Below are positions 1 through 51,622 of a DNA stretch of 64,000 bases, in pieces; position 1 is the first letter of the stretch, and every line of letters begins with the position of its first letter. Source of the stretch: Parachlamydiales bacterium (lineage in GTDB: Bacteria > Chlamydiota > Chlamydiia > Chlamydiales > CALOCV01). A program made the position numbers and the translations under genes. The stretch spans positions 8,473 to 72,472 of the forward strand of contig CALOCV010000030.1 of NCBI GenBank assembly GCA_942491955.1. The letters are read 5' to 3'. Below the pieces are notes generated by a model that was not told where the DNA came from, did no database searches, and was given only the letters and a program-made list of their open reading frames with translations.

Positions 1-366
1 AATGTCGATTTCTTTTTGTTCCAAGGTAAAGAAAAATTAAAGCATTTCTCTATGCCTATCGTCAATCTTGCCTCAGAAGGCTTGTATCATGTGCGTAAGC
101 TTCCAGAGAGAAAAAAAATCACTTACGATCTTCCAGAGGGAAGAGGTTATTTATATTTTATAATTGAAAATAAACAAGTAAATATTCGTTATCCAATTAT
201 GGAAAAAGAAGCCGAAATCGATTATCAGGAGTTATTGGAGGCTTTTTTGCAATTCCGAGAAAAAGTGCGTAGCTTTTTACGAGAAAAAACTCCACACATT
301 TTAGAACATCCTGAATGGGGTGCATGGGTAGCTGGTGAAGAACTTCCTAAAGAAATGGAAAGCTAG
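1..366 (+). CDS. Immunity-like protein, array copy 0 (5' end cut by window edge)
   Basis: Frame 1 is open from base 1 (NVDFFLF...) to TAG 364-366. The C-terminal block DYQELLEAFLQFREKVRSFLREKTPHILEHPEWGAWVAGEELPKEME is shared with the other copies. Part of the tandem array around the orphan toxin. Confidence 0.6.
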   Translation, partial: NVDFFLFQGKEKLKHFSMPIVNLASEGLYHVRKLPERKKITYDLPEGRGYLYFIIENKQVNIRYPIMEKEAEIDYQELLEAFLQFREKVRSFLREKTPHILEHPEWGAWVAGEELPKEMES

Positions 367-552
367 AGTTGCTGAAATATCATTATTAAAAATCGTTGTT
401 CGTCCTTCATCAGGAAGTATAACAACAGCTTATCCATTCACGCCTCCACAATATGGAATGCTAGAGTTGCTGAAACATCATTATTAAAAATCGTTGTTCG
501 TCCTTCATCAGGGAGTGTAACAACGGCTTATCCATTCACACCTCCATCTTAA
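367..552 (+). repeat. Two tandem relics of the toxin gene 3' end (..SLLKIVVRPSSGS(I/V)TTAYPFTPP..)
   Basis: Direct nucleotide similarity to 2440-2511, the end of the orphan toxin (ETSLLKIVVHSSGRVTTAYPFTPRT*). The second relic also carries the last ~12 nt of an immunity gene (atggaatgctag). Confidence 0.8.
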
Positions 553-563
553 GGAAAAAATAA

Positions 564-1064
564 ATGATTGAATTTGATTTTAAAGGGGAACTACTCGAAG
601 GAGATGATCTCTCTGAAAATGAAGAAGAATTTAAAGATATTATTTCAACAGCAATAGAACATACGTGTTTTATTTGTCCGATTGTATTTATTGCAAATAA
701 TGTCGATTTCTTTTTGTTCGATGATGAAGATGGCGTAGGTCATCTTTCAATGCCCATCGTCAATCTTGCCTCAGAAGGCTTGTACCATGTGCGTAAGCTT
801 CCAGAGAGAAAAAAAATCACTTATAACCTCCCAGAAGCAATGGGTTATCTCTATTTCATTTTGGAAAATGGAAAAGTGAAGCTTCGCTATCCTTTTATGG
901 AAAAAGAGGCTGAAGTCGATTATCAAGAGTTATTGGAGGCTTTTTTGCAATTCCGAGAAAAAGTACGTAGCTTTTTACGAGAAAAAACTCCACACATTTT
1001 AGAACATCCTGAATGGGGTGCATGGGTAGCTGGTGAAGAACTTCCTAAGGAAATGGAATGCTAG
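564..1064 (+). CDS. Immunity-like protein, array copy 1 (intact, 166 aa)
   Basis: Complete ORF with aaggaaaaaataaATG upstream, which is the same start context as the other copies. It serves as the reference intact member of the family. Confidence 0.65.
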   Translation: MIEFDFKGELLEGDDLSENEEEFKDIISTAIEHTCFICPIVFIANNVDFFLFDDEDGVGHLSMPIVNLASEGLYHVRKLPERKKITYNLPEAMGYLYFILENGKVKLRYPFMEKEAEVDYQELLEAFLQFREKVRSFLREKTPHILEHPEWGAWVAGEELPKEMEC

Positions 1065-1152
1065 AGTTGCTGAAATATCATTATTAAAAATCGTCGTTCG
1101 TCCTTCATCAGGGAGTGTAACAACGGCTTATCCATTCACACCTCCATCTTAA
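1065..1152 (+). repeat. Relic of toxin gene 3' end
   Basis: Same ~88 nt unit as 367-552, 3021-3108 and 3607-3694. Confidence 0.8.
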
Positions 1153-1163
1153 GGAAAAAATAA

Positions 1164-1590
1164 ATGATTGAATTTGATTTTAAAGAAGAAGAATACGTCA
1201 TTGAAAATGAAGAAGAATTTAAAGATGTCATCTCACTAGCGATATCAGAAACATGCTTTCTGTATCCCATCGTATTTATTGCAAATAATGTCGATTTCTT
1301 TTTGTTCGATGATGAAGATGGCGTGGGTCATCTTTCGATGCCCATCGTTAATCTTGCCTCAGAAGGCTTGTATCACGTCCGTAAGATTGCCAAAGAGAAA
1401 AAAAATTACTTATGATCTTCCAGAGGGACGAGGTTATTTGTATTTAATTTTTGAAAATGGTAAAGTGAAACTTCTTTTTCCTAAAAGAGAGAAAGAAGCC
1501 GAAGTCGATTATCAGGAGTTATTAGAGGCTTTTTTACAATTCCGAGAAAAAGTACGCAGCTTTTTACGAGAAAAACTCCCCATATCTTAG
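1164..1590 (+). pseudogene. Immunity-like paralog, copy 2, frameshifted
   Basis: ORFs 1164..1415 and 1279..1590 together cover the family. The frame breaks at the A8 run 1398-1405. A second shift lies in the a-run of cgagaaaaactcccc near 1567-1572, which is A5 against A6 in the other copies. Confidence 0.7.
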
Positions 1591-2511
1591 ATCATCATCC
1601 CTGAACTTGGCCGTTGGCTCACCCCCGATCCCATCGGCTTTCACGATGGATACAACCTCTACGCCTATGTCCACAACAACCCCTTCCTCTATACCGACCT
1701 CCACGGACTCTGGGCGTGGGAATTTGCCAAAGGAGCCACAGGAGCAGGCTTGCAAGTCGTCGGCCTCCGTCTGGTTGTTGCAGGAGTCACCATCCTCTTC
1801 CCTCCCGCGGGTCTTGTCCTACAATCCGCTGTCAATGTCTACGCCATGTACAACATGTACCAGATGGGAAGCACCCTCTACACCATGGGCAGCCATATCG
1901 CTACCTCTGGCTATGAAGATGGCCTGGCCGGCGTAGGACAAGCCATAGAGGACATCGGCAGCGCCTTTGGAGAACTCTCCGCTGAAGATTGGGGAGGGAT
2001 GGTAGGAGGGATCGCTGCAGGGAAAGGGATCAAGATGGCCCAAACCAGGATCTCCCCCTTTAGTAAGCCGCCTACTCTCCAAGGACGTGTCGCCCCCACT
2101 ACCGCTGGCGCCCTTGCTACAAAGACCTTCCAAAACACTCTCACCCCCAAAGCGGCCAAGCTTACTACCAAAGCAAGCCCTCTATTTCTTTGCTACTCTC
2201 CTAAAATTGCTCAAGGGAATAGAGATTATGGAATGATTCATATTCTTATGCGACACTCTTTTGATTCAACATGTAGCGGAGTCTCTCGTTTTCCAAAAGG
2301 GTGGGGAGCAACAGAAATTCGAAACGCTATCGAAGAAGCTTTGGCCATGGGACAGGGAAATTGGGAACAGGGAAGAAATCATGTGTTAAATGTCAATATG
2401 GGTAGAATGATTGGATTCGATACAAACGGTAATGAAACATCATTATTAAAAATAGTCGTTCATTCTTCAGGCAGAGTAACAACGGCTTATCCATTCACAC
2501 CTAGGACGTAA
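1591..2511 (+). CDS. Orphan Rhs C-terminal cassette: Rhs core tip plus C-terminal toxin domain (tentatively EndoU-like nuclease)
   Basis: Frame 1 is open from 1591 with no start codon. It reads IIIPELGRWLTPDPIGFHDGYNLYAYVHNNPFLYTDLHGL, which is the Rhs-associated core end motif (DPxGL type). A hydrophobic/Gly-rich linker follows, then YGMIHILMRHSFD...RFPKGW...LLKIVVHSSGRVTTAYPF. The track ORF 1750..2511 is only the part after an internal Met. Confidence 0.7.
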   Translation: MIIPELGRWLTPDPIGFHDGYNLYAYVHNNPFLYTDLHGLWAWEFAKGATGAGLQVVGLRLVVAGVTILFPPAGLVLQSAVNVYAMYNMYQMGSTLYTMGSHIATSGYEDGLAGVGQAIEDIGSAFGELSAEDWGGMVGGIAAGKGIKMAQTRISPFSKPPTLQGRVAPTTAGALATKTFQNTLTPKAAKLTTKASPLFLCYSPKIAQGNRDYGMIHILMRHSFDSTCSGVSRFPKGWGATEIRNAIEEALAMGQGNWEQGRNHVLNVNMGRMIGFDTNGNETSLLKIVVHSSGRVTTAYPFTPRT

Positions 2512-2527
2512 TACAAAAAGGAATCCA

Positions 2528-3020
2528 ATGATTCATTTAGATTTTGAAGAAGAAGAGTATCTCATTGATGATAGCACAGATCTCAAAACAATAATTTCAA
2601 CAGCAATAGAACATACGTGTTTTATTTATCCGATCGTATTTGTTGTAAATAATATCGATTTTTTTTTATTTGAAGATAAATGTGGTTTAGGTCATTTTTC
2701 AATGCCTATTGTTAATTTTGCAGTAGATGGTTTGTTCTCTGTTAGACAACTTTTTAAAGAAAAAAAATATATATTTTGATCTTCCAGAAGGAGGAGGGAG
2801 TCTCCACCTCGAAATTAATGTAAATCAAATAGTTAAACTCACCTTCCCTCCACTTAAAAAAGAAGCCGAAATCGATTATCAGGAGTTATTGGAGGCTTTT
2901 TTACAATTCCGAGAAAAAGTACGTAGCTTTTTACGAGAAAAAACTCCACACATTTTAGAACATCCTGAATGGGGTGCATGGGTAGCTGGTGAAGAACTTC
3001 CTAAAGAAATGGAAAGCTAG
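2528..3020 (+). pseudogene. Immunity-like paralog, copy 3 (divergent centre), frameshifted; cognate position directly after the toxin
   Basis: Starts 17 nt after the toxin stop. ORFs 2528..2779 and 2727..3020 join across the A8 run 2760-2767. Confidence 0.65.
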
Positions 3021-3108
3021 AGTTGCTGAAATATCATTATTAAAAATCGTCGCTCGTCCTTCATCAGGGAGTGTAACAACAGCTTATCCATTCACGCCTC
3101 CACCATAA
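3021..3108 (+). repeat. Relic of toxin gene 3' end
   Basis: Same unit as 1065-1152. Confidence 0.8.
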
Positions 3109-3117
3109 GGAAAAGAT

Positions 3118-3606
3118 ATGATTGAATTTGATTTTAAAGAAGAAGAATACGTCATTGAAAATGAAGAAGAATTTAAAGATGTTATGTCAACAGCAATAGA
3201 ACATACATGTTTTCTGTATCCAGTTGTATTTATTGCAAATAATGTCGATTTCTTTTTGTTTAAAGGTAAAGAGAGATGGAAACATCTTTCAATGCCCATC
3301 GTTAATCTTGCATCAGAGGGCTTGTATCACGTGCGACGACTACCAGAAAAAAAAAAATTATTTATGATCTTCCAGAGGGACGAGGTTATTTGTATTTAAT
3401 TTTTGAAAATCATAGAGTCAAACTCTCTTTTGCCTAAAAGAGAAAAAGAAGCCGAAGTCGATTATCAAGAGTTATTAGAGGCTTTTTTACAATTCCGAGA
3501 AAAAGTACGCAGTTTTTTACGAGAAAAAACTCCACACATTTTAGAACATCCTGAATGGGGTGCATGGGTAGCTGGTGAAGAACTTCCTAAGGAAATGGAA
3601 TGCTAG
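3118..3606 (+). pseudogene. Immunity-like paralog, copy 4, with two frameshifts that together restore the frame
   Basis: The N- and C-terminal parts are both in frame 1. The central ~75 nt, between the A11 run 3347-3357 and the T4 run 3428-3431, reads correctly (YDLPEGRGYLYLIFENHRVKLS) only in another frame. Frame 1 hits TAA at 3397-3399. Confidence 0.7.
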
Positions 3607-3694
3607 AGTTGCTGAAATATCATTATTAAAAATAGTTGTTCGTCCTTCATCAGGAAGTATAACAACAGCTTATCCATTCACGCCTCCACCATAA
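3607..3694 (+). repeat. Relic of toxin gene 3' end
   Basis: Same unit as 1065-1152. Confidence 0.8.
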
Positions 3695-3703
3695 GGAAAA
3701 GAT

Positions 3704-4129
3704 ATGATTGAATTTGATTTTAAAGAAGAAGAATACGTCATTGAGAATGAGGAAGAATTTAAAGATGTCATCTCACTAGCGATATCAGAAACATGCTTTC
3801 TCTATCCAATTGTATTGATTGCAAATAATGTCGATTTCTTTTTGTTCGATGATGAAGATGGCGTGGGTCATCTTTCAATGCCCATCGTCAATCTTGCTTC
3901 AGAAGGATTGTATCATGTGCGTAGGCTTCCAGAGAAAAAAAAAATTACTTATGATCTTCCAGATGGGACAGGTTATTTATATTTAACGCTTGAAAATCAC
4001 AGGGTCAAACTCTCTTTGCCTGTACGTAAAAAAGAGGCTGAAGTCGATTATCAGGAGTTATTGAAGGCTTTTTTACAATTCCGAGAAAAAGTGCGCAGTT
4101 TTTTACGAGAAAAAACTCCTCATATCTTA
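3704..4129 (+). pseudogene. Immunity-like paralog, copy 5, 5' part (interrupted by IS insertion)
   Basis: Reads normally to ...REKTPHIL (tta 4127-4129), then the IS inverted repeat begins. The remainder of the gene resumes at 5591. Confidence 0.8.
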
Positions 4130-4990
4130 GAACCTGTTTAAAATCTTTTTAAAAGAAGAACTACAAATGCTAAGACTACCATAGTTAAGCTAGTATTTAG
4201 CTTTCTTTCACAGTTTTTCCATAATCTTCTACACTTTTCAAGCCAGCTAAAAGAACGTTCCACAACCCATCTTTTGGGAATCACTTTAAAAGTATGCAAT
4301 TCATTTCTCTTGGCTATTTCTACTGGACAACCCAATATCTCTTGAATACCATCTGAAAATGGTTCTCCAGAGTATCCTCCATCAGCTAAAACGTTTTTTT
4401 ACTTCAGATAAAAAACTCTTCTTCAATGAACATGCTTCTAGCGCTCCTTTCCTATCTGTAATATTTGCTGTAGTTATATGAATTGCATGAGGTAATCCTT
4501 GGGTGTCTACAGCGATGTGTCGTTTTATCCCTGAAATTTTTTTTCCTGCATCATACCCTTTACTCTCAGCTGTATCGGTATTTTTAACGCTTTGCGCATC
4601 AATTATTATAAAACTGGTTTTCTCTTTCCGACCATTGTTTTGTCGGACCTCTCCAACCATTTTTTTTTAAAACTTTCTCAAGGATGCTTTCTGAATTATC
4701 ATCGCTTTCTTTCCATAACTTGAAATAGTAATAGCAAAGTTCCCATTTAGGATATTCTTTTGGCAACATACGCCACTGACAGCCACTTTTTAAAACATAT
4801 AAAATTCCACAAAAAATATCAAAAAGGTCTACGGTTCTAGGGCGTGTTTTTTTTCGCACAGACTCAAGCAAAGGTTTGATTTTGTCAAATTGCTTTCGAG
4901 AAATATCGCTTGGATAAGAGTGAGCCATCATTGCCTCCAAAGTTTTGAAAGCAATTTTTATACAGGATTAGAAAGATTTTAAACAGATTC
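4130..4990 (-). mobile_element. IS5-family insertion sequence (IS427/IS1031-like), 861 bp
   Basis: Terminal inverted repeats are GAACCTGTTTAAAATCTTT at 4130-4148 and its near-complement at 4972-4990. TTA lies on both flanks. A two-ORF transposase sits inside. Confidence 0.8.
4138..4940 (-). pseudogene. IS5-family DDE transposase (orfA/orfB, A9 slippery run, plus an extra frameshift)
   Basis: The N-terminal ORF 4599..4940 has the DUF4096-type motif (LYVLKSGCQWRMLPKEYP). The 4382..4660 ORF has IIDAQSVKNTD. The 4138..4335 ORF has PKRWVVERSFSWL. orfA and orfB overlap at the A9 run (forward T9, 4660-4668). The DDE part is additionally broken at the A7 run (forward T7, 4394-4400). Confidence 0.75.
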
Positions 4991-5025
4991 TTAAGAAACT
5001 TGGTTGACATATCTCAGCAATAAAA

Positions 5026-5307
5026 ACTACCACAGAGCCCACAGAGAGCACAGAGAGAGGGTTATATTTTCATTCGACGAATACCTTCTACCAATCGTTT
5101 CACATTAAAATTGATCAGCAATCCTCGGGCACAAGTTCCATAGAGCTTTAAATAAGATAGTCGTTGTGCTTCGTGTATTAGAGCTATTCCATTCACAGAT
5201 TTAATTTCTATAATTACCTGATCCTCTACAACTTCTTCAGACATTTCTGGATGCACTAAACAATCTATATGTCCTCCCTCTGTGTTCTCTGTGGGCTCTG
5301 TGGTAGT
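5026..5307. repeat. Small element bounded by ~35 bp inverted repeats rich in CACAGAG
   Basis: 5026-5061 (actaccacagagcccacagagagcacagagagaggg) is the reverse complement of 5273-5307 with 2 mismatches. It encloses ORF 5062..5256. Confidence 0.7.
5062..5256 (-). pseudogene. GxxExxY-family (PD-(D/E)XK-like) protein, C-terminal half only
   Basis: The pattern VIIEIKSV...IHEAQRLSYLKL...GLLINFN..RLVEGIRR matches the C-terminal half of GxxExxY proteins. The N-terminal half carrying the name motif is absent. Confidence 0.5.
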
Positions 5308-5384
5308 TTATTTTCTAAAAACTCGTTCAAAACTGTTTTACGAATAAAACGACAAAAGCAAGGATGACCATATGTAAACTGGTT

Positions 5385-5590
5385 TTTCAAACATATGAAA
5401 TGCCACAAATTACATCATATAAGTCGACCGCTCTAGGACGTGTTTTTTTTCTTGCAGATTCCAGAAGAGGTTTAATTTTGTTAAACTGTTCACGATCCAT
5501 ATCGCTAGGATAGCAATGGGGCATAAAATACCTACAATTGTCTTGGAAAATAATTGTTTATACAGGATTAGAAAGATTTTAAACAGGTTC
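5385..5590 (-). mobile_element. Truncated second, divergent IS5-family copy (right end and transposase N-terminus only)
   Basis: 5561-5590 repeats the IS end (tacaggattagaaagattttaaacaggttc). 5400-5525 encodes MPHCYPSDMDREQFNKIKPLLESARKKTRPRAVDLYDV.., which is homologous but not identical to the 4599..4940 product. Confidence 0.7.
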
Positions 5591-5668
5591 TTAGAACATC
5601 CTTATTGGGGTGCATGGGTAGCAGGTGAAGAACACGCTTATGACAAGGAGTGGATCCAGAGTTCTTGA
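5591..5668 (+). pseudogene. Immunity-like paralog copy 5, 3' part
   Basis: Reads LEHPYWGAWVAGEE.. directly after the IS end. Joining 4129 to 5591 and removing one TTA restores ...PHILEHP... Confidence 0.75.
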
Positions 5669-6067
5669 GATATCGCGATACAAAGAGGAGACGTAGAGCA
5701 CTAAAAAGCGTGGGAAGAGAGGGATGTGAGGTATATAGCGAATAGGATTCAAAATCGGGATTTTGCATGGATCCTTATCTATGCAATCTTTTGTTTGACC
5801 TCTACAGGATATCCCAGTTCTTCCAAAACTTTTTCATTGATTTTTGTGCACGAAGTTTATGTGGGTTTGTATTGAATCCTATTGAGGGTTTAAAAGAAAG
5901 CGGCCTGCGCTCTTGTTAAAAAAATAAAAAAAATATTGCTATGCTATAATGATAAGAGAGGGGTGTGCTTCTGCTTATCTTATATCGCTTTTTTTCGATA
6001 AATGCCCCCTTTTCTTGAAATAAGCAGGGGCAATCATTTATTAAGTATTTAACTAAGAGGGATTTTT

Positions 6068-8563
6068 ATGACCAATCCCATCAATCCGTTAGAACCTAGC
6101 GATATCCCCCCTATTCCACCTAGCGAAATTCCATCGATTAACGAACCTGCTCAAGGCGAGAGTGACACCATCGGAGCCTTTACCGACCCCGATTCCTTTT
6201 TTATCACCAATGCGAGCTCTTTTCTTCCTCTTCCCGATGATATCGATATTTTGACCTATTTAAAGCTTTTGGGGGATAGTATCCTTGAGTTCCAAAATGA
6301 GCTCCGCGTCTCTACCCGTTCTACCCTCGACCAACGGGCTCTTTTCCGCGGTGCCATTGTTAATGTTTTCCAAAATTTTTCCCTTCTACTCGATGCTCTA
6401 AAAGATATCGTTGAAGAAGGAGAACAACTCGTTGATGAAGCCAATGAAGACATCGATGCTGTGAATCAAAGTACCGATGCCCACAACGCAGCACTTGCGA
6501 CCGATCAACAACAACTCGAAGCCATGCAAACCGTTATTGATAATTACAATACCGCTCTACAAGCTTGGAGAGATTGTGCATCAGGTTGTGGTGCTCTTAT
6601 CCTTGCATGGGTCCAAGCAGCGACCTTCTACAATGTGCAAAGAGCCTCTTACAATACTTACCGCAATACCAGAAATCCCGAAATTGCCGACTACAACGAC
6701 GCTCTTGGAGAATATGCGTTCCAGCGCCTCTTTCAAAATGGAGATATTTTCTCCTACAATCAAGACCATGCCCAAACACCCGGATTCGTCCCGATCCACT
6801 TAATGCAAGGAACGAATCCCGATGAAGTTCCTGAACTTCCTGCATACAGTTCGGTATCGATTCCCGGTAATCCCTTATCTACTGACCCCAATACCCTCCC
6901 CCTCCTAGATCCCATCTCGCAAGCAGAAATCGATGAAGCAACGACTCCAGTAACAAAGCCCCCTAATCTAACGTTTGAAGGAAACCTAGACATCGTTAAC
7001 CAAGGACTCCTGCCCTTTCTTATCCCCGCTCTCAATTTTGCAAATCAACTAGTCACCGTTCTCGATGCACAAGAACGGTTTGATCCCGATGATGAACTCG
7101 AATCGGCACGCGATAAGCTGCTTCCTCCTGCCTTCTTCAATCAACAGACTGAGGCTATTTTAAAAACCGATACGGGTGCAGGCAGTAATATCGGCCTGAC
7201 ACAGGTGACTTTGACAGCCAATGATGCCGTTCTTGAAGGAATTATCTCTCGGTCATTGATCGAAAACGTTTTCCGACAACAACAACTCAAATTAGAATCC
7301 TCTTTTTTCGGTCAGACACAATTGATTTTAGCCAGTGTTTTTGGAACTAACTTGTTACGCGCCATTCCACCAGGATTGAGCATCATTAGCCCTCAACTCC
7401 CTAACGTAACCGCGAATTCTCCCATTTTTTCTATTGTCTTTGCCCTCTCCTTTAGCAATCGGGTCCAAGAAATCATTGAACAAGGGGTTTTAGGGGGTGC
7501 TATCGAAGACCTCATTGCGAATGCTCCCCAATTGCAATCGCTTTCTGCAGGGCAAAAAGCCGATATACAGAATGATCTTTCCAATACTGCCACCACCTCG
7601 TTCATTCTCGTTTCTGCAGGTCTTCTCGCTCGCACACTGGGCCTTCCCTCTCTTGTCTCTCAACTTCTAGCGACATTCGGCATCCTTTCACCCTCCCAAC
7701 AAAAAAGCCTATTCTCTGGCGAGGAAGATACTCTAACGCTGCGTCAACAGCAGCGAGAAGATTTGTTGAATCGATTTGTTAACCAAGGATTTGGACCCAA
7801 TGAAGCACAATTTTTGAGTGCAACCGCTGTTGATAATCTCAACCGAGGTTTTATTAATCCTCTTCTCTTTCCCATTACTCAAGACAATCTTCGGGTCGAT
7901 GCTCTCTCCTCAAATCTAGCAAGTGGGCTCGTCTTTAAAGGCATTCCATCACCAAGAGCACAATCCATTGCCGAAGCAGCGGTACAAAGTGTCCTCGGAG
8001 GAGGAACTTCTTTCAATCGCCTCACCTCTCTCCGCGATGCACTCCGCACGGCTCTACGAGCAGAAGGAGTTCCCGGTTCGACAGCGGAAGAGGTCTCGAA
8101 TGCAGCCGACTTCGAAGGAAATCTAACAGACCCTCTTGCTAACGTTCCCGTTGGAAGCCTAACGCCAGAACAACTCATTAATACGGTCGGAGAAAGAGTT
8201 TCTGCTCTTCTCGACCCTGTATTAGGATCCAAATTAACGGGGCAGATCCGTGAAGAAATCACCCGTTCTCTTGCAGGAACCGAGCCTGCTGGTATCGAAG
8301 CTGTCAAAGATGAGAAAACTCCATTTTCTCTAACAAGCCTTCTTCGCGATCACAGAATTGCCGATGAGTCATCGGCTACTGCTGAAGCCAAAGAGAACCA
8401 AGCGGCCGCATTCCAAGAAAAAATGGCCCCTCATCACAATCTTTATGAGCTCGAAAGGAGGATGATCGATCCAGCAAATATCTACCTATTTATGTACTCC
8501 AGCGCGATGAATTTGGGCCTAGAACCCAAAGAATGGAAGCAATCCATTGATATTCAGGCATAA
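6068..8563 (+). CDS. Large hypothetical protein (831 aa), candidate secreted protein
   Basis: Long ORF with an RBS-like agaggg upstream and a Pro/Ser-rich low-complexity N-terminus. First gene of a co-directional block ending in T3SS chaperone/translocator genes. Confidence 0.6.
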   Translation: MTNPINPLEPSDIPPIPPSEIPSINEPAQGESDTIGAFTDPDSFFITNASSFLPLPDDIDILTYLKLLGDSILEFQNELRVSTRSTLDQRALFRGAIVNVFQNFSLLLDALKDIVEEGEQLVDEANEDIDAVNQSTDAHNAALATDQQQLEAMQTVIDNYNTALQAWRDCASGCGALILAWVQAATFYNVQRASYNTYRNTRNPEIADYNDALGEYAFQRLFQNGDIFSYNQDHAQTPGFVPIHLMQGTNPDEVPELPAYSSVSIPGNPLSTDPNTLPLLDPISQAEIDEATTPVTKPPNLTFEGNLDIVNQGLLPFLIPALNFANQLVTVLDAQERFDPDDELESARDKLLPPAFFNQQTEAILKTDTGAGSNIGLTQVTLTANDAVLEGIISRSLIENVFRQQQLKLESSFFGQTQLILASVFGTNLLRAIPPGLSIISPQLPNVTANSPIFSIVFALSFSNRVQEIIEQGVLGGAIEDLIANAPQLQSLSAGQKADIQNDLSNTATTSFILVSAGLLARTLGLPSLVSQLLATFGILSPSQQKSLFSGEEDTLTLRQQQREDLLNRFVNQGFGPNEAQFLSATAVDNLNRGFINPLLFPITQDNLRVDALSSNLASGLVFKGIPSPRAQSIAEAAVQSVLGGGTSFNRLTSLRDALRTALRAEGVPGSTAEEVSNAADFEGNLTDPLANVPVGSLTPEQLINTVGERVSALLDPVLGSKLTGQIREEITRSLAGTEPAGIEAVKDEKTPFSLTSLLRDHRIADESSATAEAKENQAAAFQEKMAPHHNLYELERRMIDPANIYLFMYSSAMNLGLEPKEWKQSIDIQA

Positions 8564-8723
8564 AAAATAGCCAAAAACAAGGGGAAATCTGATGCAATTG
8601 ATTGAAATAAATATTTTATTTGTATTAAAATAGATGTAGAGGGGTAGATACCGTTCTCGTATTCTTTTCTTTTCCTATCATTCCCATCTTTTTAAAGAAA
8701 ATCTGGTAATTAAGGAGTCATTT

Positions 8724-10010
8724 ATGACGATTTTTGTTGAAGGCCTTGGCGAAGTCCAAATCGTCAATAACGAATATACCCACCCTGATGTCGGACGTGA
8801 GTACAAGCGACAAATCGCAGTGCTGACGGATATTTTTGCCCGCCGACCCTCCGTTACAGGAACCGACGCAAGCACTTCCTTTTCGGCTGCAGATCACGAC
8901 GCCATTGTCAATGCCATAAAGGCACTTCGAAACCTTGCGCAAAATGGTTTGGAACGAAACGTCGTTTTGGGAAATCCAAATTCCCCAACAGAGCGTTTTT
9001 TCCTCACGACAGAAATGGCAAATAACCTCGATCTCGTCCTCCGTTCTCTCAAAATAGCAGGCATCACTACCCCTCCAGCCGCTCTTAACGGTGTAGATAA
9101 AAAAAATGCCGTTATCAATTGGATCGACCTCGCTGGATTTGGTGTGGCAGAAATCTTGCAAAGCGCTGTCAGTGCAGGCATCAATAACCGTTCTATCCAA
9201 AGCCTTTTAGAACTCGAGTATGTAAAAACGGGAAATGATGTGATTTTTACGGCTCTTACCAATCTTGAAGAGGCTCTTGGGATCACAAAAGAGGTCCTAG
9301 AGACCTTAGAACAAGTACAAGCGCTGCGCAATCAAGTGGCGCTACAAAGCCTTCCCACATTGAGCGCATTCCTGGAAGAAAATTTTCCCCAACTTCTCCC
9401 TCAAGGGTCGGGTCTTCCTGTTGTCGATGGAGACCTCTGGGTAACCCAATACTCGGCAGCGCTAGCCGATTACGTCAAACTCGTTGTACCGAGTTATACA
9501 GGAGATCCCAATCAACTTGCATTTAGCATTTTTGATCTACGCGCCAAGCTCAATAGCCAACTTCTTCGCCTGGAACAAGTAAGCCCAGAAAATACCCGCA
9601 GTGTGGAAGGAACGCTCGCATTTAATATCAACGAAATCATTAAAGCAATCAGCCTGGTATTTACCAGCCGTACCATTGTATCGGGAGGCACATCTCTCGT
9701 CTTCCACGACATCAACTCTCCTCCATCCGCTCTTCGACGAGCAGCCATTAACTTTCTCCTCGTTAACACGGGCGAAGAGCAGCTACTCAGCGCAACATTT
9801 CAATCGCTTCGCGAGGAACTCAACGCCGATTTCAACTTAGAAAACTCGATTAGCACAGCAATCACTTCAGCAGAATCGCTGAATGATACGCAAAAGCAGG
9901 ATGTTCGACGGTTTTTGTTTGTTTTTGAAGAATTTTATAAATCAGCAAGTGCCGTATTAACAAAAATGTCGCAAATCATCGATAAATTTGCTCAAAATAT
10001 TGCAAGGTAA
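8724..10010 (+). CDS. Hypothetical protein (428 aa)
   Basis: Long ORF with aaggag 8 nt upstream of the ATG. Confidence 0.6.
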   Translation: MTIFVEGLGEVQIVNNEYTHPDVGREYKRQIAVLTDIFARRPSVTGTDASTSFSAADHDAIVNAIKALRNLAQNGLERNVVLGNPNSPTERFFLTTEMANNLDLVLRSLKIAGITTPPAALNGVDKKNAVINWIDLAGFGVAEILQSAVSAGINNRSIQSLLELEYVKTGNDVIFTALTNLEEALGITKEVLETLEQVQALRNQVALQSLPTLSAFLEENFPQLLPQGSGLPVVDGDLWVTQYSAALADYVKLVVPSYTGDPNQLAFSIFDLRAKLNSQLLRLEQVSPENTRSVEGTLAFNINEIIKAISLVFTSRTIVSGGTSLVFHDINSPPSALRRAAINFLLVNTGEEQLLSATFQSLREELNADFNLENSISTAITSAESLNDTQKQDVRRFLFVFEEFYKSASAVLTKMSQIIDKFAQNIAR

Positions 10011-10026
10011 TGTAAGGAGAAACAGT

Positions 10027-11358
10027 ATGGCAGTGAATGATGATTTTTTCTTTGATGATGGAGTCCAACGACTCGATTTTCTTGCGACTCTTGACGCCGA
10101 ATTTCTCGAATTCCAAGGCTCTCTTGGGGAGGATGTATTTCGCAATGGAGTTGCCCAATTTATTTTTGAAAATGCTCCAGGCTTTGTTGGAGGTCTTCTC
10201 GGAGGTGGAACCCAAGAAAACGTGGCAAAGGTGATTTCTGCTGCCTTAAGCAAATTCTCTGCAGGAGGGAATGCTCTCCCGCGTAATTTTAACATGTTTG
10301 TTGAACAATTGATTACCAATCTAGATACCCCCGTCGCCCCAGATCTTGAGGTGGTCAAAGAGGCCATTGTCCGCCAATTTGGCATTGCTGTCGGGATTCG
10401 CGATAAAACAACCGGTGAACTCCTTCCTAACCTTGGAGAGTGGGCTCCTTTAGCTAACGTCTCTGGAGGTCTTGATGAAGAGACACTCTTTGCACAAGCT
10501 TTTGGTGAATTCGTCCGCACCTATCCTTATGGAGAACAAGGACAAATTTCTGATGATATCGCACCCCCTTCAGGAGACACCTCAGCTTTTCTTAATTTTA
10601 CAGCAAACCTCCATAAATTCTTTATTCACGTCGCTCGATTACAAGAAGATCCCGTGCCAGGATCCCTTCTTTCAGAAGGTTCAGGAACCAACCTCATCAG
10701 CTACGAAAGAATCTATAATGGATTCTTTCCCGATAATCCCAACGGTTTTCAACCCCGTCTTGTCGAATTTTATCAGAAAAAAATTGAAGATGATGGATTT
10801 TTCCTACCTAGCCAAGCCGTTGACGACTGGGTCGACAGCCTAAAAAGCGAACTTTTGAGTGGGATGGAAGAACTTCTCGACGCCCCATTCCTTACTTCTG
10901 TAACCGGAAACAATTCAGAAAAAGTCGGCATCCTCAATCGCATCATATTCCTTGTCAGTCGCCTTGTGGAAACTCTACAACGCGTTGCTGCCACTCAGGC
11001 ACGCCAACTCGACATCCTCACCAACCTGCAGAAGAACTACACGGATATGCAATCCCAAATTCCTGTCGTTTCCGCTTCAACAACAGGTATTGGTCAACAA
11101 ATCAACGAACCGCCTGATGATAGTGATGACGACAGTGAACTTGCAAAAAACGATGCGGAAAGACGACAAAACATCAATACCAACATTAGTCAAAGAGCCA
11201 TCGAAACCATTCGAGGAAGAAAGCAATTAGAAGAAAATAAGGCAAAAAAAATCCAGTCGCTTGTTAACCAAGCCAATGACGCTGTTAACCAACAGGCAGA
11301 GATCGCAACGGCATTGTTGCAACAATTGAGTAGTCTGCTACAAGCGCTTTATCGTTAA
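10027..11358 (+). CDS. Hypothetical protein with C-terminal Q/N/L-rich coiled coil (about 443 aa)
   Basis: ORF 9988..11358. ATG 10027 is preferred as the start because aaggag lies at 10013-10018. The C-terminus ends ...ATALLQQLSSLLQALYR. Confidence 0.6.
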   Translation: MAVNDDFFFDDGVQRLDFLATLDAEFLEFQGSLGEDVFRNGVAQFIFENAPGFVGGLLGGGTQENVAKVISAALSKFSAGGNALPRNFNMFVEQLITNLDTPVAPDLEVVKEAIVRQFGIAVGIRDKTTGELLPNLGEWAPLANVSGGLDEETLFAQAFGEFVRTYPYGEQGQISDDIAPPSGDTSAFLNFTANLHKFFIHVARLQEDPVPGSLLSEGSGTNLISYERIYNGFFPDNPNGFQPRLVEFYQKKIEDDGFFLPSQAVDDWVDSLKSELLSGMEELLDAPFLTSVTGNNSEKVGILNRIIFLVSRLVETLQRVAATQARQLDILTNLQKNYTDMQSQIPVVSASTTGIGQQINEPPDDSDDDSELAKNDAERRQNINTNISQRAIETIRGRKQLEENKAKKIQSLVNQANDAVNQQAEIATALLQQLSSLLQALYR

Positions 11359-11382: not shown

Positions 11383-11955
11383 ATGAAAAGTGGAAAAGGA
11401 GCCAAGACGCAAATGAAAAAAGCTGCGCTCGACATCGCCCAAGAAAATGCGGAAGAACTTGGTGGACAGCTCAGCCAAGTGATAGACAAAGTCCTAAAAG
11501 GAGGGATGCTTGTCAAAGACGCTATGGGCTTAAACGAGACCGTTGTCGAAGGGATCTACGCACAAGCATATCGCCTCTATAACACAGGAAAATACATCGA
11601 AGCCAGCCACCTTTTTCGAATGCTTATTGCCATCAACCCAACAGAAGCCAAATACACCCTTGGTCTAGCCGCTTGTTTTCACATGTTAAAAGAGTACCGC
11701 AATGCCGTGCAGGCCTATACGATTTGTGGATTGATCGATCCCGAAAACCCCGTCCCTCACTACCACGCTTCCGATTGCTATATCCAGCTCAAAGACATCT
11801 TATCAGCAATTGTCGCCCTCGAGATCACCATCAAGCGTTCAGGAGAGAAAAAAGAGTACACCACAATCAAAGACCGCGCTCGGATGACTCTTGAAGGCTT
11901 AAAAAAAGAGTTTAAAGAAAATCCTCCCCCTCCACCACAAAAAGAGGGTGAGTAA
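11383..11955 (+). CDS. T3SS class II (translocator) chaperone, TPR, LcrH/SycD/Scc family
   Basis: TPR pattern YRLYNTGKYIEASHLFRMLIAINPTEAKYTLGLAACFHMLKEYRNAVQAYTICGLIDPENPVPHYHASDCYIQL. Strong RBS (aaggagggg). Lies directly upstream of a hydrophobic translocator-like gene. Confidence 0.7.
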   Translation: MKSGKGAKTQMKKAALDIAQENAEELGGQLSQVIDKVLKGGMLVKDAMGLNETVVEGIYAQAYRLYNTGKYIEASHLFRMLIAINPTEAKYTLGLAACFHMLKEYRNAVQAYTICGLIDPENPVPHYHASDCYIQLKDILSAIVALEITIKRSGEKKEYTTIKDRARMTLEGLKKEFKENPPPPPQKEGE

Positions 11956-12123
11956 AATATATATTTTAACAATATACATTTGGGTAAGTGCCGCGTAACT
12001 TTGTAGATAGAGAAGCTTAGGAAAATCGTGTCCCCTCCCTAGATAACTATGTTTCTCTCATCATACCTTACAAGGGGGCAAAGCACTTACCCCATTTTTG
12101 ATTATTACCCAACGGAGGTCATC

Positions 12124-14383
12124 ATGACATCGCCAGATACCATCTCGGGTCCACGAAGAGACTGGCGAGATTTTTCGGTAGGCGCAAGCCAAACTTCTGC
12201 ATCTGAAAGAGCTTCGGGAGCGACCTTATCCCCTTTCGCTGCCGACGTTATCACAAGCCAACTCAACCAACAAGATAGCGCGGTTGAACGCCAACAATAT
12301 CACGCCAATCCGCAGAGCCCACAACTCGAAAACCCTGACGAAGAAGAAGCTCGGGAAGGAGGCGAATCGGTTGCTACAAGACGCCCCTATAAACGAACGG
12401 ATCGAGCCGTTATCTTGCGCGAATTCAGTACCGCATACCAGCAAGAAGTCGTTCGTTACGCATCGCAGCAAAGCCCCCCTCTTACAGAAGAAGAGATGGA
12501 TCGTTTAATGCGCGCCTTAGAGAATCCCGACGACCCCGATATCGATGAAGAAACCCAACAACTGGCGGAACAATTGGGTCAACAAGCCGAGCAGACAATC
12601 CGTCAACAATTCCATCTTCCTCCCACATGGACGCCAAAAAAGCACTTCACAAAGAGATTGGACCCCAACAACCGAATATGGAGGAGAATCTACAGCTGAA
12701 GAGCCCTATACCCTAGAACAACAGACAGAGATCAACAATGCTTACCAACAAACTGTGCAACAAAAGACACAAATGATATCGCGCAATGCTTACGACCCTC
12801 CACTCACTGATGAAGAAATGGCAGCCATTGCCCAACTTGCCGAAAACCCCCAATCCGGTGCAGCAGAAGGACTCCGTCCAGAGGTAGCCGCCCTTGCACA
12901 ACAAGTCCGGCAGCAATCCCTTAGCCAGATACGAGCAACCTATGCCCTCCCCGACACCTGGGTTCCTGGAACGACAGACCAGCTAAATTGGACCCCAATT
13001 ACTGTCGATGGCGTTGTGCCCAATGCCAGAGGGCAAGCAGCAGGCGACGATTTATTGATCAATACAGGACAATATTTGAATGAAAACGAAGAGGCGATGC
13101 AGAATCTTCAAGGCTCCATTCCTCCCAACCATCCAGGACAAATCTCCATTCAAGACTTCATGAAAGCCATTGCAGAAGCGATCCAAGAATTTAAGAAATT
13201 CCTCTACGAAGAGCAGTCACGTAGCGATGCAAAATGGGTGCAAGGGTTTACCGATGAAAGGCAAAAAGCGATCAAGCAACAAGGATACGAACACGAAGAG
13301 ATAATGGAACTGACCAAAAAAGGTGAAAAAAAACAAAAGATCATGTCGGGCCTGAAAATTGGTATGTACGTAGCGGCTGCTGTTATCGCTTTGGCTGGAA
13401 TGATCTCAGCGGTTTTCACAGGAGGATCTGGAGCCCTTCTTGTCGCCGTCGCCGTCACGCTCATCTCCATTGCTGTTAGCGTTGCTGACTCGCAAACCGG
13501 TTTTATGAGTAAGGGAATCACAGCTGCCGTTGACGGTTTAGCCAGTGCCGTTGTTGAGATGTCCGGAGGAGCTATTAGCGAAGATGATGCAAAAATCATT
13601 AGCGGTGTCACCCTCCTCATCATCGCCATCGCGGTTACAGTCGCCTTGGTTGCCGCATCCGGTGGAGGAGGTTCCTCGGGTGTACAAGCAACGTCGAGCA
13701 TTGTCAAAGAGACCGTCAAAGCGACGGCTCTGAACGTTTCCATGGCTCTTGTTGTCGCTGCTATCGGTCCTCTTACCATGAACGTCGTCGAACAAATCAT
13801 CAAGCAAGCCGATCCGAATATGTCTGAAGAGACCCGAAAACTCATTGCCATGCTCACTTCTCTTCTCGTCACCCTGGCAGCAGGTGCTGCAATGGGAGCT
13901 ACAATGAGCAAAGGAATGAAGAATATTGAAGGAGCTAAAGGGAGTGGTGGAACCGCACAAGCAACAGGAACCACAACAGCAACAGCGAATGAAGGAGCCA
14001 GCATGGCAAAACGCATGATGGAGCAGGCGAAACAAGCATGGAGTAATTTACCTCAAGACACCAAGAATTCCCTATCTGGAGCAGCCGATAAGATGACAGC
14101 CGGAGTCAATATTGGACTCCCCGCCACTCAAGGAGCCATGTCCATGGCAATGGGTGCCATGCTATTGCAACAGGCGCAAATCGAAAAAGAAAAAGGGTAT
14201 GCTGAAGCTGATATCCACGCGATACAAGCGTTGATCAAACTTCTCGATAAACTTTTAGAACATATGCAAAGCACGATCGGTGGAGAGATGAAAATGATCG
14301 GCTCTCTGGACAATGTACAAAAAAACATGTACAGAGGAGCTTCAGCAGAATTGAGCAAAGGCTGGAATGCCGTGCAAGCGTAA
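12124..14383 (+). pseudogene. CopB/YopB-like hydrophobic T3SS translocator candidate, frame broken at an A6 run
   Basis: ORFs 12049..12699 (frame 1) and 12545..14383 (frame 2). ggagg lies 7 nt before ATG 12124. The central region has long hydrophobic segments (IGMYVAAAVIALAGMISAVF..., LLIIAIAVTVALVAA...). The junction is at ccaaaaaagc, 12636-12641. Confidence 0.55.
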
Positions 14384-14395
14384 AGGAAGGGTTTC

Positions 14396-14953
14396 ATGAC
14401 AGATATTTTTCAACTCGACAAAGTCATGGAAGAGATTGGCGATGAAATTGCCAAAGATCTCTCTTCTGAAGAAAAGAAGGAGATGGAAGAGGCCATTCTC
14501 AAACATCTAACCACGGGAATTCCTCCTCTTCAAGCTCTTGGATTCAGCAAGGAGATGGTTGACGCTTTGTATACTGTCGGACATCAACTCTATCGCGCGC
14601 AAAAGTATGATCAAGCCGCCTCTGTCTAACAAGTATTGGCTCGCCTTGATCCGAGCAATTTTCGCGCCTATTTTGGACAAGCCATCTGTGCCCATAAGCA
14701 AAAGAAATACACCATTGCTCTGATCCATTATTTTACCTCCATTCATTACGCACAAGACGATCCCCTTCCCCGCTATCACCTCGCTCACTGTTTCCGCGAA
14801 CTCAAGCGTTACCGAGAAGCCACCATCATGCTTCGCCTAGCCATTGATTTGGCAAAGACTAACGAGAAAAAATATAGCGCTCTTGGAGAAAGAGCACGCC
14901 TTTGGCTCAAAGCCATGATTAAAGAGAGTAAAAAGAAAAAAGTTCCCGCATAA
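14396..14953 (+). pseudogene. Second LcrH/SycD-type TPR chaperone, interrupted by an in-frame TAA
   Basis: ORFs 14396..14629 and 14636..14953 are in the same frame. TAA at 14627-14629 sits inside a TPR helix (..YRAQKYDQAASV*QVLARLDPSNFRAYFGQAICAHKQKKY..PRYHLAHCF). Confidence 0.65.
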
Positions 14954-14965
14954 AGGAAAACCACC

Positions 14966-15634
14966 ATGATTCCATTTGGCAACGTCCCTATCGACCCACC
15001 CACCCGTCAGCTTCCAGGAGGATTGGAGACCGATCGTCCCGATTTCCGCCACCATCAACAAGTCACCGATCCCCATCACGGCACCAACATCAACGTCATT
15101 GCCAGCGATAGTGAGCTTAACATCGACGTCCCCATCAACGTACTTGCAAGGAATATCGGTTTCCAGCAAGCAGAAGCCTCCTATCCCCTTCTTCTTCCTA
15201 TTGCATTGCTACGTGGTGAAACACCCCGTCTTCTCGCAGAGAGTCCTTTAGCTAAAGAACGCTATAAAAAATTGTTGCGCCGCCTATCGCCTGCCTTACG
15301 CGAAGCGATCGAAGCCAATGAAGGACTGCCCAAAGAACATCGCGATGGAGCATTGACCGGTTTTGCAGAGAGTCTGCAGTGGATGGCCCTTTTCATGACC
15401 AGTTTCCAAGGTTTTGGAAAGAAAGAGGTGGAAGGAGATCCTGAGAAAGAGGCTAATGCCCTAACCATGGGATGGGGAGAAACATTAGATGAAGAAGGGA
15501 GCATTTTTGTCGGAGCTCTACAAGATTATCTTACCCAATTTGATGGAGGCGCTCCTGAAAGAGAAATTCTTTCGACCCTCTTCTATGAAATGCGCGACGC
15601 CGTCCCAGAAAGCCCAATGACAGAGGAGGAGTAA
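14966..15634 (+). CDS. Hypothetical protein (222 aa)
   Basis: ORF in the operon, with an RBS-like aaggaaa upstream. Confidence 0.5.
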   Translation: MIPFGNVPIDPPTRQLPGGLETDRPDFRHHQQVTDPHHGTNINVIASDSELNIDVPINVLARNIGFQQAEASYPLLLPIALLRGETPRLLAESPLAKERYKKLLRRLSPALREAIEANEGLPKEHRDGALTGFAESLQWMALFMTSFQGFGKKEVEGDPEKEANALTMGWGETLDEEGSIFVGALQDYLTQFDGGAPEREILSTLFYEMRDAVPESPMTEEE

Positions 15635-15635
15635 C

Positions 15636-16043
15636 ATGTCTCTCTCTCCTTATCAGCAACAGGAACGGTGGCAAACCTTGTTGGAGAAATTGGAAAACCA
15701 CCCCTATCTAGAAAACCAATTATACGCCCTCCACCCATGGATTCGGAACCGACAACTGCAACTCTCTCTCGACAATGCCGGTGTCGCTGCACCCTTTCTC
15801 GTCGGATGCTGTGCAGCAACGATCGGGATCTATAACGAAAAAAGTGCAACAGGATGGATGGGTCCTGGGATTGAAGCCATAGCAAAAGGGGTTAAAAAAT
15901 TTTGGAAGCTCTCTCTCCCCTCTCTTTCCATCGGTGATCAATGCCTTCTGGAAGCCGTGACCGACCTCTATATTCTATCGATCGCCTTTTTTTTCCCTCT
16001 ATACGTTACAAGGAGGGGCACTTGGAGGAAAAGGGTTGTCTGA
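15636..16043 (+). CDS. Hypothetical small membrane protein (135 aa)
   Basis: ORF with gaggagg upstream and hydrophobic segments (APFLVGCCAATIGIY; LYILSIAFFFPLYV). Confidence 0.45.
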   Translation: MSLSPYQQQERWQTLLEKLENHPYLENQLYALHPWIRNRQLQLSLDNAGVAAPFLVGCCAATIGIYNEKSATGWMGPGIEAIAKGVKKFWKLSLPSLSIGDQCLLEAVTDLYILSIAFFFPLYVTRRGTWRKRVV

Positions 16044-16581
16044 CGAACAAAAAAACGACAAAGAAGAGACCTACCGCATCAACACTCTGCTCTTTTTCAT
16101 GGGATCAGAAACCATGCGCACTCTTGTGATGGAAACGATGACTCTCCTAGGAAAGAGCAAAAGCATACGAAATCAAAGTGGAGAGTTAGCTCGACTGTTG
16201 AGCCTTTTTTTAAGCCTTTTATTTATCCAAAAAGAGAATCCCCAACAATTTGAAGAAGTATTTACCGAGCTACAGCCTTTTGTAGAAAAAACCATCCATA
16301 GCGTGGAAGAAAGTATCGAATCGCTACAAGAACAACCGACACAGGAAATCGCAAGATGGATCACAACCCTACAGACACTTCTATTCGCTTGGAAAAATGA
16401 AGACCCCTCTTCCTGGAAGAAGAACCTTCCCTCTCTTTGGGAAGTCCTTGGAGTCAAACAAGAAGAGATCGACCGAGATATCGAGCGTCTCCGGACAAAA
16501 ATCGAACAACTCGGTGATGAAATCCAACAATCCTTCTTACGGAGAGATGAAGCGGTGACCAGTGTTACCCAGTCCGTTTGA
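16036..16581 (+). CDS. Hypothetical protein (181 aa)
   Basis: ORF with a TTG start 7 nt after ggagg. Overlaps the previous gene by 8 nt. Confidence 0.45.
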   Translation: MSDEQKNDKEETYRINTLLFFMGSETMRTLVMETMTLLGKSKSIRNQSGELARLLSLFLSLLFIQKENPQQFEEVFTELQPFVEKTIHSVEESIESLQEQPTQEIARWITTLQTLLFAWKNEDPSSWKKNLPSLWEVLGVKQEEIDRDIERLRTKIEQLGDEIQQSFLRRDEAVTSVTQSV

Positions 16582-16605
16582 AGAAAAAAAAATATATAGG
16601 AGGAC

Positions 16606-26379: not shown

Positions 26380-26397
26380 CTTTGTCCCCTGGCTGAC

Positions 26398-51605: not shown

Positions 51606-51622
51606 GAATTACCTCATCCACA

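Follow-up and report, generated by a model that had tools for sequence, protein, structure and literature searches.

The beginning of the 64,000-nt stretch of contig CALOCV010000030.1 analyzed here (the window) carries a tandem array of genes for ~160-aa proteins, the putative immunity proteins of a polymorphic toxin of the Rhs family. The array region (positions 1–5668) includes six copies of this gene (designated A to F), all on the plus strand and separated by spacers of ~100 nt wherever no orphan toxin cassette intervenes. It also contains one such cassette (rhs-CT, the C-terminal tip of an rhs gene), five relics of the toxin 3′ end, and insertion sequence (IS) elements (Table 1).

Direct-repeat analysis of positions 1–9000 revealed a start-to-start spacing of 586–600 bp, with 4–6 copies per repeat family. 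The six units, all within positions 1–4130 except for the beginning of the first, start at approximately −122 (upstream of the window), 564, 1164, 2528, 3118 and 3704. The first-pass annotation had described a ~550–600 bp unit recurring six times from position 1; the repeat was confirmed, but not the start of its first unit. Two intervals are longer: the first measures 698 bp in register owing to a 98-bp duplication inside unit A, and that from C to D, which accommodates the orphan cassette, measures 1364 bp. When the intact open reading frame (ORF) at 564–1064 was used as a tblastn query, matches were obtained at 1–363, 564–1061, 1164–1620, 2528–3017, 3118–3603 and 3704–4132, together with a short match at 5567–5632. 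Copy A constitutes the 3′ part of a gene encoding a 162-aa protein (P0004; copy A supplies its C-terminal 121 residues), whose start lies ~123 nt before the window. The array therefore extends upstream, as had been suspected.

In every complete unit the stop codon of the ~160-aa gene is followed by 8 nt and then by the last ~24 codons of the toxin. The sequence behind the stop codon reads AGAGTTGC; from TGAAAYATCATTATTAAAAAT onwards it is homologous to the toxin 3′ end, and the toxin stop codon, an AAGGA ribosome-binding site and the ATG of the next copy follow in that order. The presence of such relics had been noted previously, and all five are indeed recognizable by tblastn (E = 8e-6 to 2e-4), with 79–88% amino acid identity to the real toxin end, although they span ~24 codons and not the ~30 first proposed. 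At the DNA level the identity is 72% over 87 nt. Both the repeat and the relics are thus real and well beyond chance. The relics carry a tail variant of their own, SLLKIVVRPSSGS(V/I)TTAYPFTPP.

The junction between the two parts of the unit (GCTAGAGTTGC/TGAAAYATCATTA) is identical in all units, and in unit A it has itself been duplicated. One shared junction argues for a single founding event followed by amplification, and not for repeated independent truncations. This supports the earlier proposal that the amplified entity was a unit composed of the toxin tail plus the immunity gene, and not the immunity gene alone. The idea that the relic might provide a promoter was not supported, since promoter-like sites in positions 1–6100 were no more common than in shuffled sequences (15 versus 17.7±4.3); what the relic does carry is the ribosome-binding site of the next gene. 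The G+C content of the array is 28–38%. In the remainder of the window, outside the array and a high-GC stretch of the orphan cassette (1601–2200), it is 0.36–0.49.

Table 1. Features of the putative immunity array and of the elements inserted into it (positions refer to the window).
Feature	Position	Strand	Remarks
Putative immunity copy A, last 121 codons and stop	1..366	+	Intact; whole gene encodes P0004
Toxin-tail relics (two)	374..543 (374–445, 472–543)	+	98-bp internal duplication, including the junction and ~10 nt from the 3′ end of the immunity gene
Putative immunity copy B, 166 aa	564..1064	+	Intact
Toxin-tail relic	1072..1143	+	SLLKIVVRPSSGSVTTAYPFTPPS and stop, then AAGGA ribosome-binding site and ATG of copy C
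Putative immunity copy C	1164..1590	+	Pseudogene; +1 near 1390, −1 in A-run 1571–1575; 3′ end replaced by orphan cassette at CATCC(C)TGAA microhomology
Orphan rhs-CT cassette	1591..2511	+	Rhs core end with DLHGL (~1600–1710), GC-rich hydrophobic pre-toxin region (~1711–2187), toxin domain (2188–2508)
Putative immunity copy D	2528..3020	+	16 nt after orphan toxin stop; most divergent copy; +1 at or near A8 run 2760–2767
Toxin-tail relic	3028..3099	+	
Putative immunity copy E	3118..3606	+	Pseudogene; −1 in A11 run 3347–3357, +1 near 3425, stop codon between
Toxin-tail relic	3614..3685	+	
Putative immunity copy F, codons 1–142	3704..4129	+	Terminal copy; interrupted after TTA codon by IS element
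IS5-family insertion sequence, 862 bp	4130..4991	−	Terminal inverted repeats GAACCTGTTTAAAATCTTT, flanked by TTA; transposase (DUF4096 + DDE_Tnp_1) broken into three ORFs
Partial second copy of the same IS	5383..5590	−	75–89% identical; directly followed by TTA and the remainder of copy F
Displaced 3′ end of copy F	5591..5668	+	TTA duplication, then EHPYWGAWVAGEEHAYDKEWIQSS and stop (5666–5668)

The cassette located between copies C and D had been described as an orphan Rhs module, and several lines of evidence show that it is a genuine Rhs C-terminal tip. Residues 4–40 of its translation (1591–2508) match the NCBIfam model TIGR03696 (Rhs_assc_core; profile positions 40–76 of 76) with 44.1 bits against a cut-off of 32.5, and residues 4–43 match the core ends of YenC2, TccC3 and Rhs proteins in the PDB (E = 8e-5). 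Its core motif, NNPFLYTDLHGL, has DLxGL in place of DPxGL, a variant shared with the related Rhs protein P0009. The open frame begins directly after a stop codon (1588–1590) with IIIPELGRWLTPDPIGFHDGYNLYAYVHNNPFLYTDLHGL, and the first possible start is a TTG at 1750; orphan modules commonly lack a start of their own (PMC3150448). The G+C content reaches 56–57% (1601–2200) in the core end and in the hydrophobic, Gly/Ala-rich region preceding the toxin domain; P0009 has a pre-toxin region of a similar type in front of a different toxin. For the N-terminal part of the tip there is a single annotated relative, a partial RHS protein from a metagenome-assembled genome of Parachlamydiaceae.

The point at which the cassette was joined to the array can also be recognized. 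Copy C reads ...TTAGATCATCATCCCTGAACTTGGCCGTTGG where an intact copy reads ...TTAGAACATCCTGAATGGGGTGCATGG; the 3′ end of the immunity gene (EHPE) and the end of the rhs core (IPE) have therefore been joined at a 9–10-nt microhomology, CATCC(C)TGAA.

Within the window this cassette is the sole toxin body, as had been claimed, but a full-length Rhs protein with the same tip is apparently encoded by the same contig. This protein, P0007, consists of 1804 aa and contains RHS repeats (RHS_repeat, E = 4e-53), a DUF6531 domain and a signal-peptide-like N-terminus. Its tip is likewise composed of a DLHGL core end, a hydrophobic pre-toxin region and a toxin domain of ~107 aa. The protein clusters with the orphan ORF at 90% identity, and from IPELGRW on the two are identical at 90% of their residues. 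The first ~200 residues of the shared region are nearly identical, and almost all of the differences are found in the last ~120 residues, concentrated in the toxin domain. The extreme tails are SILRIVVSRFRNVTTAYPCS in P0007 and SLLKIVVHSSGRVTTAYPFTPRT in the orphan; counting the relics, three tail variants exist. A further 169-aa paralog of the immunity gene product, P0001, is 48% identical to copy B. Like every window protein that was looked up, P0007 and P0001 are each recorded on one contig of 203,441 nt. Both are therefore presumably encoded by the contig of the window, most likely just upstream of the array.

The toxin domain comprises the last ~107 residues of the tip. In the four sequences compared, P5, G10, G15, H18, I19, R22, H23, VS.F, W59, IG and the C-terminal YP are invariant. 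The best Pfam match for both toxin versions of this genome is EndoU_bacteria (PF14436), at 19.1–21.7 bits against a gathering threshold of 25.3, and the alignment covers only profile positions 65–128 of 129, that is, the C-terminal half. In view of these sub-threshold scores and the half-profile alignment, the EndoU assignment suggested in the first-pass annotation was not adopted. One homologous toxin from another contig (L003, see below) gave a weak match to PBECR1 (E = 0.02), and a second (L006) gave no Pfam match. A profile built from the four domains produced only a spurious match to tryptophanase when compared with PDB sequences. An AlphaFold model, based on only two admissible sequences, was poor (pLDDT 51); the top probabilities in a Foldseek search with it were for colicin D (E = 0.5–0.8, TM 0.32–0.33), but none was significant and they are treated as non-evidence. 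The predicted toxin is probably an RNase of the BECR type (EndoU/colicin-D-like).

Neither Pfam nor NCBIfam has a model for the ~160-aa family. None of 40 members matched Pfam at E ≤ 1e-3, and two of them gave weak matches to DUF7878 (best E = 0.0021); a match to a well-known non-immunity family, which would have spoken against an immunity role, was thus sought in these collections and none was found. A HMMER profile search of 1.84 billion representatives yielded 215 relatives at E ≤ 1e-3 (85 at E ≤ 1e-10), mostly of 150–180 aa, with several two-domain fusions of 300–380 aa. A word-indexed search with the family returned paralogs from this contig only.

The genomic context of the relatives was read at three loci (L003, L005 and L006). 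At L003, a family member (P0067) overlaps the stop codon of a gene for an 1804-aa Rhs protein whose last ~105 residues are homologous to the toxin domain of the window (...HIMKRH...TSLIKIVVDQQGVVRTAYPCENL), and a fragmented second paralog follows directly. At L006, P0072 is located behind an Rhs protein ending in ...HIIKRH...STYPF, and at L005 a tail reading ...RLITAYPYN, followed by a stop, precedes P0069. The signature common to the toxin domains of these pairings is HIxxRH...TAYP. Neither the toxin domain nor the ~160-aa family was found with the closest P0007-related Rhs proteins that have other tips (L001, L002, P0009, P0010, P0012 and P0014, with AHH-like or hydrolase-like ends); at L001 and L002 unrelated small genes follow the rhs gene. 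Immunity genes typically lie just downstream of the toxin tip, covary with the tip and not with the shell, and form tandem paralogs and fusions (PMC3482391, PMC3150448). The co-variation with the tip, the downstream position, the tandem paralogs and the fusions observed here therefore fit this signature, and the family can be regarded as the putative immunity protein of this toxin domain, in agreement with the earlier view of the paralogs as immunity-like.

The same data bear on another possible role, that of an accessory factor of the toxin domain, such as a chaperone, an adaptor or an activator. The absence of any match to an Imm family in Pfam or NCBIfam, or to a fold in the PDB, would be compatible with such a role, and the conserved 3′ third of the gene could encode a constant partner-binding module. 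The strictly downstream location (overlapping the tip or within ~16 nt of it), the variation with the tip instead of the shell, and the presence of tandem paralogs and two-domain fusions nevertheless make it highly unlikely. The AlphaFold model of copy B, which is fairly confident (pLDDT 78, pTM 0.76), predicts two halves, each composed of a β-sheet plus helix, and a long C-terminal helix. No significant PDB match to this fold was found (best E = 0.08), and a PUR-repeat fold, considered on the basis of a match with this E value, was rejected.

Additional features were observed around two of these loci. At L003 (6474–12483 of an unrelated metagenome contig) the second paralog behind the Rhs/immunity pair is distributed over two ORFs, with no toxin relic between the copies; further on there is a PhdYeFM/PIN pair and then a second rhs gene split into three ORFs. 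Downstream of the toxin/immunity pair of L006 (5277–6734) there is an isolated fragment of an Rhs shell (154 aa), beyond which a further rhs gene, encoding a signal peptide of its own, begins.

Inspection of the six copies did not bear out the statement that each unit holds a gene of 145–166 aa. Only A and B are intact; C, D and E are frameshifted, and an IS element interrupts F, whose 145-aa ORF results from truncation by this insertion. The frame of copy F is continuous from 4129 to 5594 across the TTA target duplication (TTA, then GAA CAT CCT TAT TGG...), and it is for this reason that the region 5516–5668 was rejected as a seventh copy and assigned to F, of which it is the displaced 3′ terminus. 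It shares only 82% identity with the ends of the other copies and is followed by no toxin relic, which fits F as the last unit of the array, outside the high-identity block of the other copies. Between the two IS copies that separate the parts of F, the minus strand carries part of a PD-(D/E)XK_3 (PF13366) gene (5062–5256). This fragment is bracketed by 42-nt inverted repeats (5019–5060 and 5273–5314, 90% complementary) and has the appearance of a small mobile or palindromic element.

Some of the frameshifts could be base-calling errors or represent slippage-prone sites. A run of A8–A11 occurs at the same KKK codons in every copy (111–118, 809–816, 1398–1405, 2760–2767, 3347–3357 and 3935–3944); two of the five frameshifts are found in such runs and one in a shorter A-run (A5/A6). 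Blocks that are nearly identical between the copies could, in addition, mislead an assembler. It might accordingly be argued that the frameshifts, and possibly the number of units, are artefacts of sequencing or assembly, and that all six copies are intact and the array fully functional. We consider this quite improbable. The +1 shift in copy C is a G inserted near 1390, outside any homopolymer, and the second shift in copy E lies in a T-run of only 4 nt, so that E would require two independent errors 78 nt apart. Moreover, the copies differ by 20–40% over most of their length and are therefore not collapsed or expanded duplicates, while the IS insertion and the orphan junction represent structural and not base-calling features. 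Neither these two features nor the G insertion in C and the T-run shift in E can be explained by base-calling or slippage. The array is thus in decay at present, with three copies frameshifted, one interrupted and two intact, and the small number of frameshifts per copy indicates that inactivation was probably recent.

Comparison of the copies revealed two zones of very different conservation. Mean pairwise identity is 0.92–1.00 across 919–1156 (in the coordinates of copy B), a stretch of ~240 nt that extends from approximately codon 119 through the relic. It is only 0.70–0.80 across most of 604–918, apart from a 40-nt island of 0.90. When the gene was divided into seven blocks, the nearest neighbour was found to change between them: C and E are identical (100%) over nt 1–70, B is closest to D and E over nt 71–135 and to F (98%) over nt 136–200, C is closest to E over nt 271–350, and A equals D and B equals E (100%) over nt 431–498. 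Similarly, the first 48 aa of P0004 and copy E are identical, after which the two diverge. The copies are therefore old mosaics made by recombination. Between copies, the rate of synonymous substitution (dS) is 0.3–1.7 in codons 1–115, with a ratio of nonsynonymous to synonymous rates (dN/dS) of 0.18–0.54; for codons 116–166 the values are dS 0.07–0.6 and dN/dS ≤0.11. A dS of 0.3–1.7 combined with low dN/dS shows that the paralogs are old and evolved as coding genes, under purifying selection.

These values have to be weighed against the view that the array is a neutral by-product of slippage and unequal crossing-over in an AT-rich repeat under relaxed selection, in which only the copy beside the full-length toxin matters. 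Frameshifts or interruption in four of the six copies, the IS inside the terminal copy, the missing translation start of the orphan, and the fact that no related strain, genome or metagenome contig with the array was found (scans of genome contigs; a scan of metagenome contigs with an exact 47-nt pattern and with protein) are all as this view would predict. The selection data, however, indicate that the genes were kept as coding sequences long after duplication (dN/dS of 0.2–0.5, and ≤0.11 in the 3′ third). The pseudogenes, with no more than one or two frameshifts each, seem to have been inactivated recently, and tandem or fused duplicates recur elsewhere in the family (L003; the two-domain proteins). 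A purely neutral origin is for these reasons judged rather unlikely.

Taken together, positions 1–5668 very probably represent the distal part of an Rhs polymorphic-toxin locus with a decaying, putative immunity array that was built by recombination. Upstream, and apparently on the same contig, the gene of the Sec-signal-bearing P0007 would be followed, directly behind its toxin domain, by an immunity gene. A first illegitimate join would then have placed the last ~24 toxin codons, together with the ribosome-binding site of the immunity gene, 8 nt behind an immunity stop codon. The resulting ~590-bp unit may have been multiplied and rearranged through unequal homologous recombination and gene conversion, for which the ~240-nt block of 92–100% identity, made up of the 3′ third of the immunity gene and the relic, would have served as the substrate. 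A second illegitimate join, between the 3′ end of an immunity gene and the end of an rhs core at CATCC(C)TGAA, would finally have given rise to the orphan rhs-CT/immunity module now located inside the array. We infer this order of events, and likewise any adaptive value that the array may have. The variability of the N-terminal two-thirds suggests that the paralogs differ in specificity for toxin variants and form a backup immunity repertoire.

Several observations weigh against this interpretation. Copy D, the immunity gene directly behind the orphan, is frameshifted and most copies are dead, which makes a function of the present-day array doubtful. Copies share stretches of up to 62 nt at 100% identity and ~300 nt at 96% identity, so that an assembly from short reads could have placed units in the wrong order. 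The connection of the ~160-aa family with toxin neutralization is one of position and co-occurrence, for a protein whose predicted fold has no PDB counterpart, and the placement of P0007 and P0001 next to the array is likewise presumed. Finally, the nuclease assignment is weak, considering the sub-threshold, half-profile EndoU_bacteria score, the marginal PBECR1 match, the low-confidence model and the non-significant similarity to colicin D.

A bolder extension of this scenario is improbable as it stands, but deserves mention. If the host is an obligate intracellular, chlamydia-like bacterium, a once-functional repertoire of at least four to six diverged paralogs beside a Sec-exported Rhs RNase might record sustained toxin warfare among related chlamydiae sharing a host cell or inclusion, with the relic acting as a landing pad for switching of tail and immunity. 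If this were true, the expressed toxin gene could recombine with any unit of the array, swapping the last two β-strands and the partner immunity gene together.

The locus resembles several systems described previously. Loci that combine a main rhs gene with orphan modules, IS elements and AT-rich tips have long been known (PMC3150448, PMC3967940). As in the rhs loci of E. coli, Salmonella and Dickeya (Poole et al. 2011, PMC3150448; Koskiniemi et al. 2014, PMC3967940), a full-length rhs gene (here presumably at the same locus) is accompanied by a 5′-truncated downstream tip, which retains a core-coding piece, has no translation start and precedes a small gene of its own. Both also have IS elements at the locus and AT-rich tip and immunity genes. 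Unlike the orphan rhs-CT/rhsI modules of these bacteria, the orphan tip described here is 90% identical to the main tip and not an unrelated toxin, and it is embedded among immunity paralogs of the same family. It further differs in the Sec signal of the Rhs protein, in the absence of a visible type VI secretion context (PAAR or VgrG), and in having DLHGL for DPxGL.

The strings of esaG, tipC and tsaI genes associated with toxins of the type VII secretion system (Garrett et al. 2022, PMC9484751) are similar in that non-identical immunity paralogs adjoin a polymorphic toxin, that blocks of high nucleotide identity surround variable regions, with mosaic genes arising from recombination between paralogs, and that a toxin 3′ fragment can be found within the immunity cluster (a tspA fragment among tsaI genes). 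In esaG and tipC, homologous recombination between conserved blocks of tandem paralogs changes the copy number and generates mosaics (PMC9484751). The toxin class (Rhs, Sec-exported) and the protein families are different here, and a toxin 3′ fragment is present in every repeat unit, whereas a single fragment was found there.

Homogeneous polyimmunity loci (Zhang et al. 2012, PMC3482391) also contain at least four tandem, co-oriented paralogs with short spacers, and their families include fusion proteins. As defined there, however, these loci never contain intervening toxin genes or cassettes, whereas an orphan cassette and five relics are located inside the present array, most copies of which are, in addition, pseudogenes. 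As for the toxin, its small α+β domain at the C-terminus of an Rhs carrier, with the invariant H...RH and a [ST]xYP motif at the C-terminal end, resembles BECR-fold RNase toxins (EndoU_bacteria PF14436, colicin D, PBECR). It also shows weak matches to the EndoU_bacteria and PBECR1 profiles and best, though not significant, fold matches that include colicin D. It differs from them in that no score reaches a curated threshold, the EndoU profile is covered in its C-terminal half only, and no confident model was obtained.

The first-pass annotation had considered an immunity array of this size as new for a chlamydia-like lineage, a claim that is weakened by the literature. Chlamydiae are already listed among the lineages with RHS-borne toxins, including Tox-EndoU and other toxins, and with several Imm families (PMC3482391), and RHS-family proteins are among the predicted clusters of chlamydial outer-membrane proteins (PMC2811131). 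Extended homogeneous polyimmunity loci were in 2012 known only from proteobacteria, bacteroidetes, firmicutes and actinobacteria (PMC3482391). Tandem immunity paralogs as such, including clusters with toxin 3′ fragments inside, have nevertheless been described before (PMC3482391, PMC9484751, PMC3150448). What is new here is modest: an unnamed toxin/immunity pair, the occurrence of the last 24 toxin codons in every repeat unit, and breakpoints that can be read to the base.

Several features of the rest of the window are of interest with regard to the host. Genes of a type III secretion system (T3SS) are scattered along it, with a SycD/LcrH-type chaperone and translocator-like genes at 11383–17946 and SctD with an N-terminal FHA domain at 33508–35274; these fit a chlamydia-like organism without proving one. 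The low to moderate G+C content of the window is also consistent with such an organism. The window contains no rRNA gene, and tRNA-Trp is its sole RNA gene; RpoB and RpoC are encoded at 47337–55381. All of the window proteins that were looked up are singletons at 90% identity, indicating that the collection holds no close relative of this organism. Between the array and the T3SS chaperone gene there are three large ORFs (831, 428 and 456 aa; 6068–11358) with no Pfam or NCBIfam match, which, judged by their position, are candidate secreted effectors. The region 24844–28232 includes a 511-aa ORF that matches only the N-terminal half of the class II lanthipeptide synthetase LanM (TIGR03897, 312 bits, positions 30–519 of 932), followed by an ABC exporter apparently split into two overlapping ORFs (26398–27021 and 26979–28232). 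This may be a decayed lanthipeptide (bacteriocin) cluster.

The locus leaves the current understanding of polymorphic toxin systems unchanged. It does provide a toxin-domain/immunity pair lacking a Pfam or NCBIfam model, with ~200 relatives and four independent genomic pairings, that can be named and tested. It also shows how such an array is built, by two illegitimate joins followed by recombination through a conserved block, which extends the picture obtained for esaG and tipC from toxins of the type VII secretion system to Rhs toxins. If the host is indeed a chlamydia-like bacterium, the locus would add to the evidence for competition of bacterium against bacterium in such intracellular organisms.

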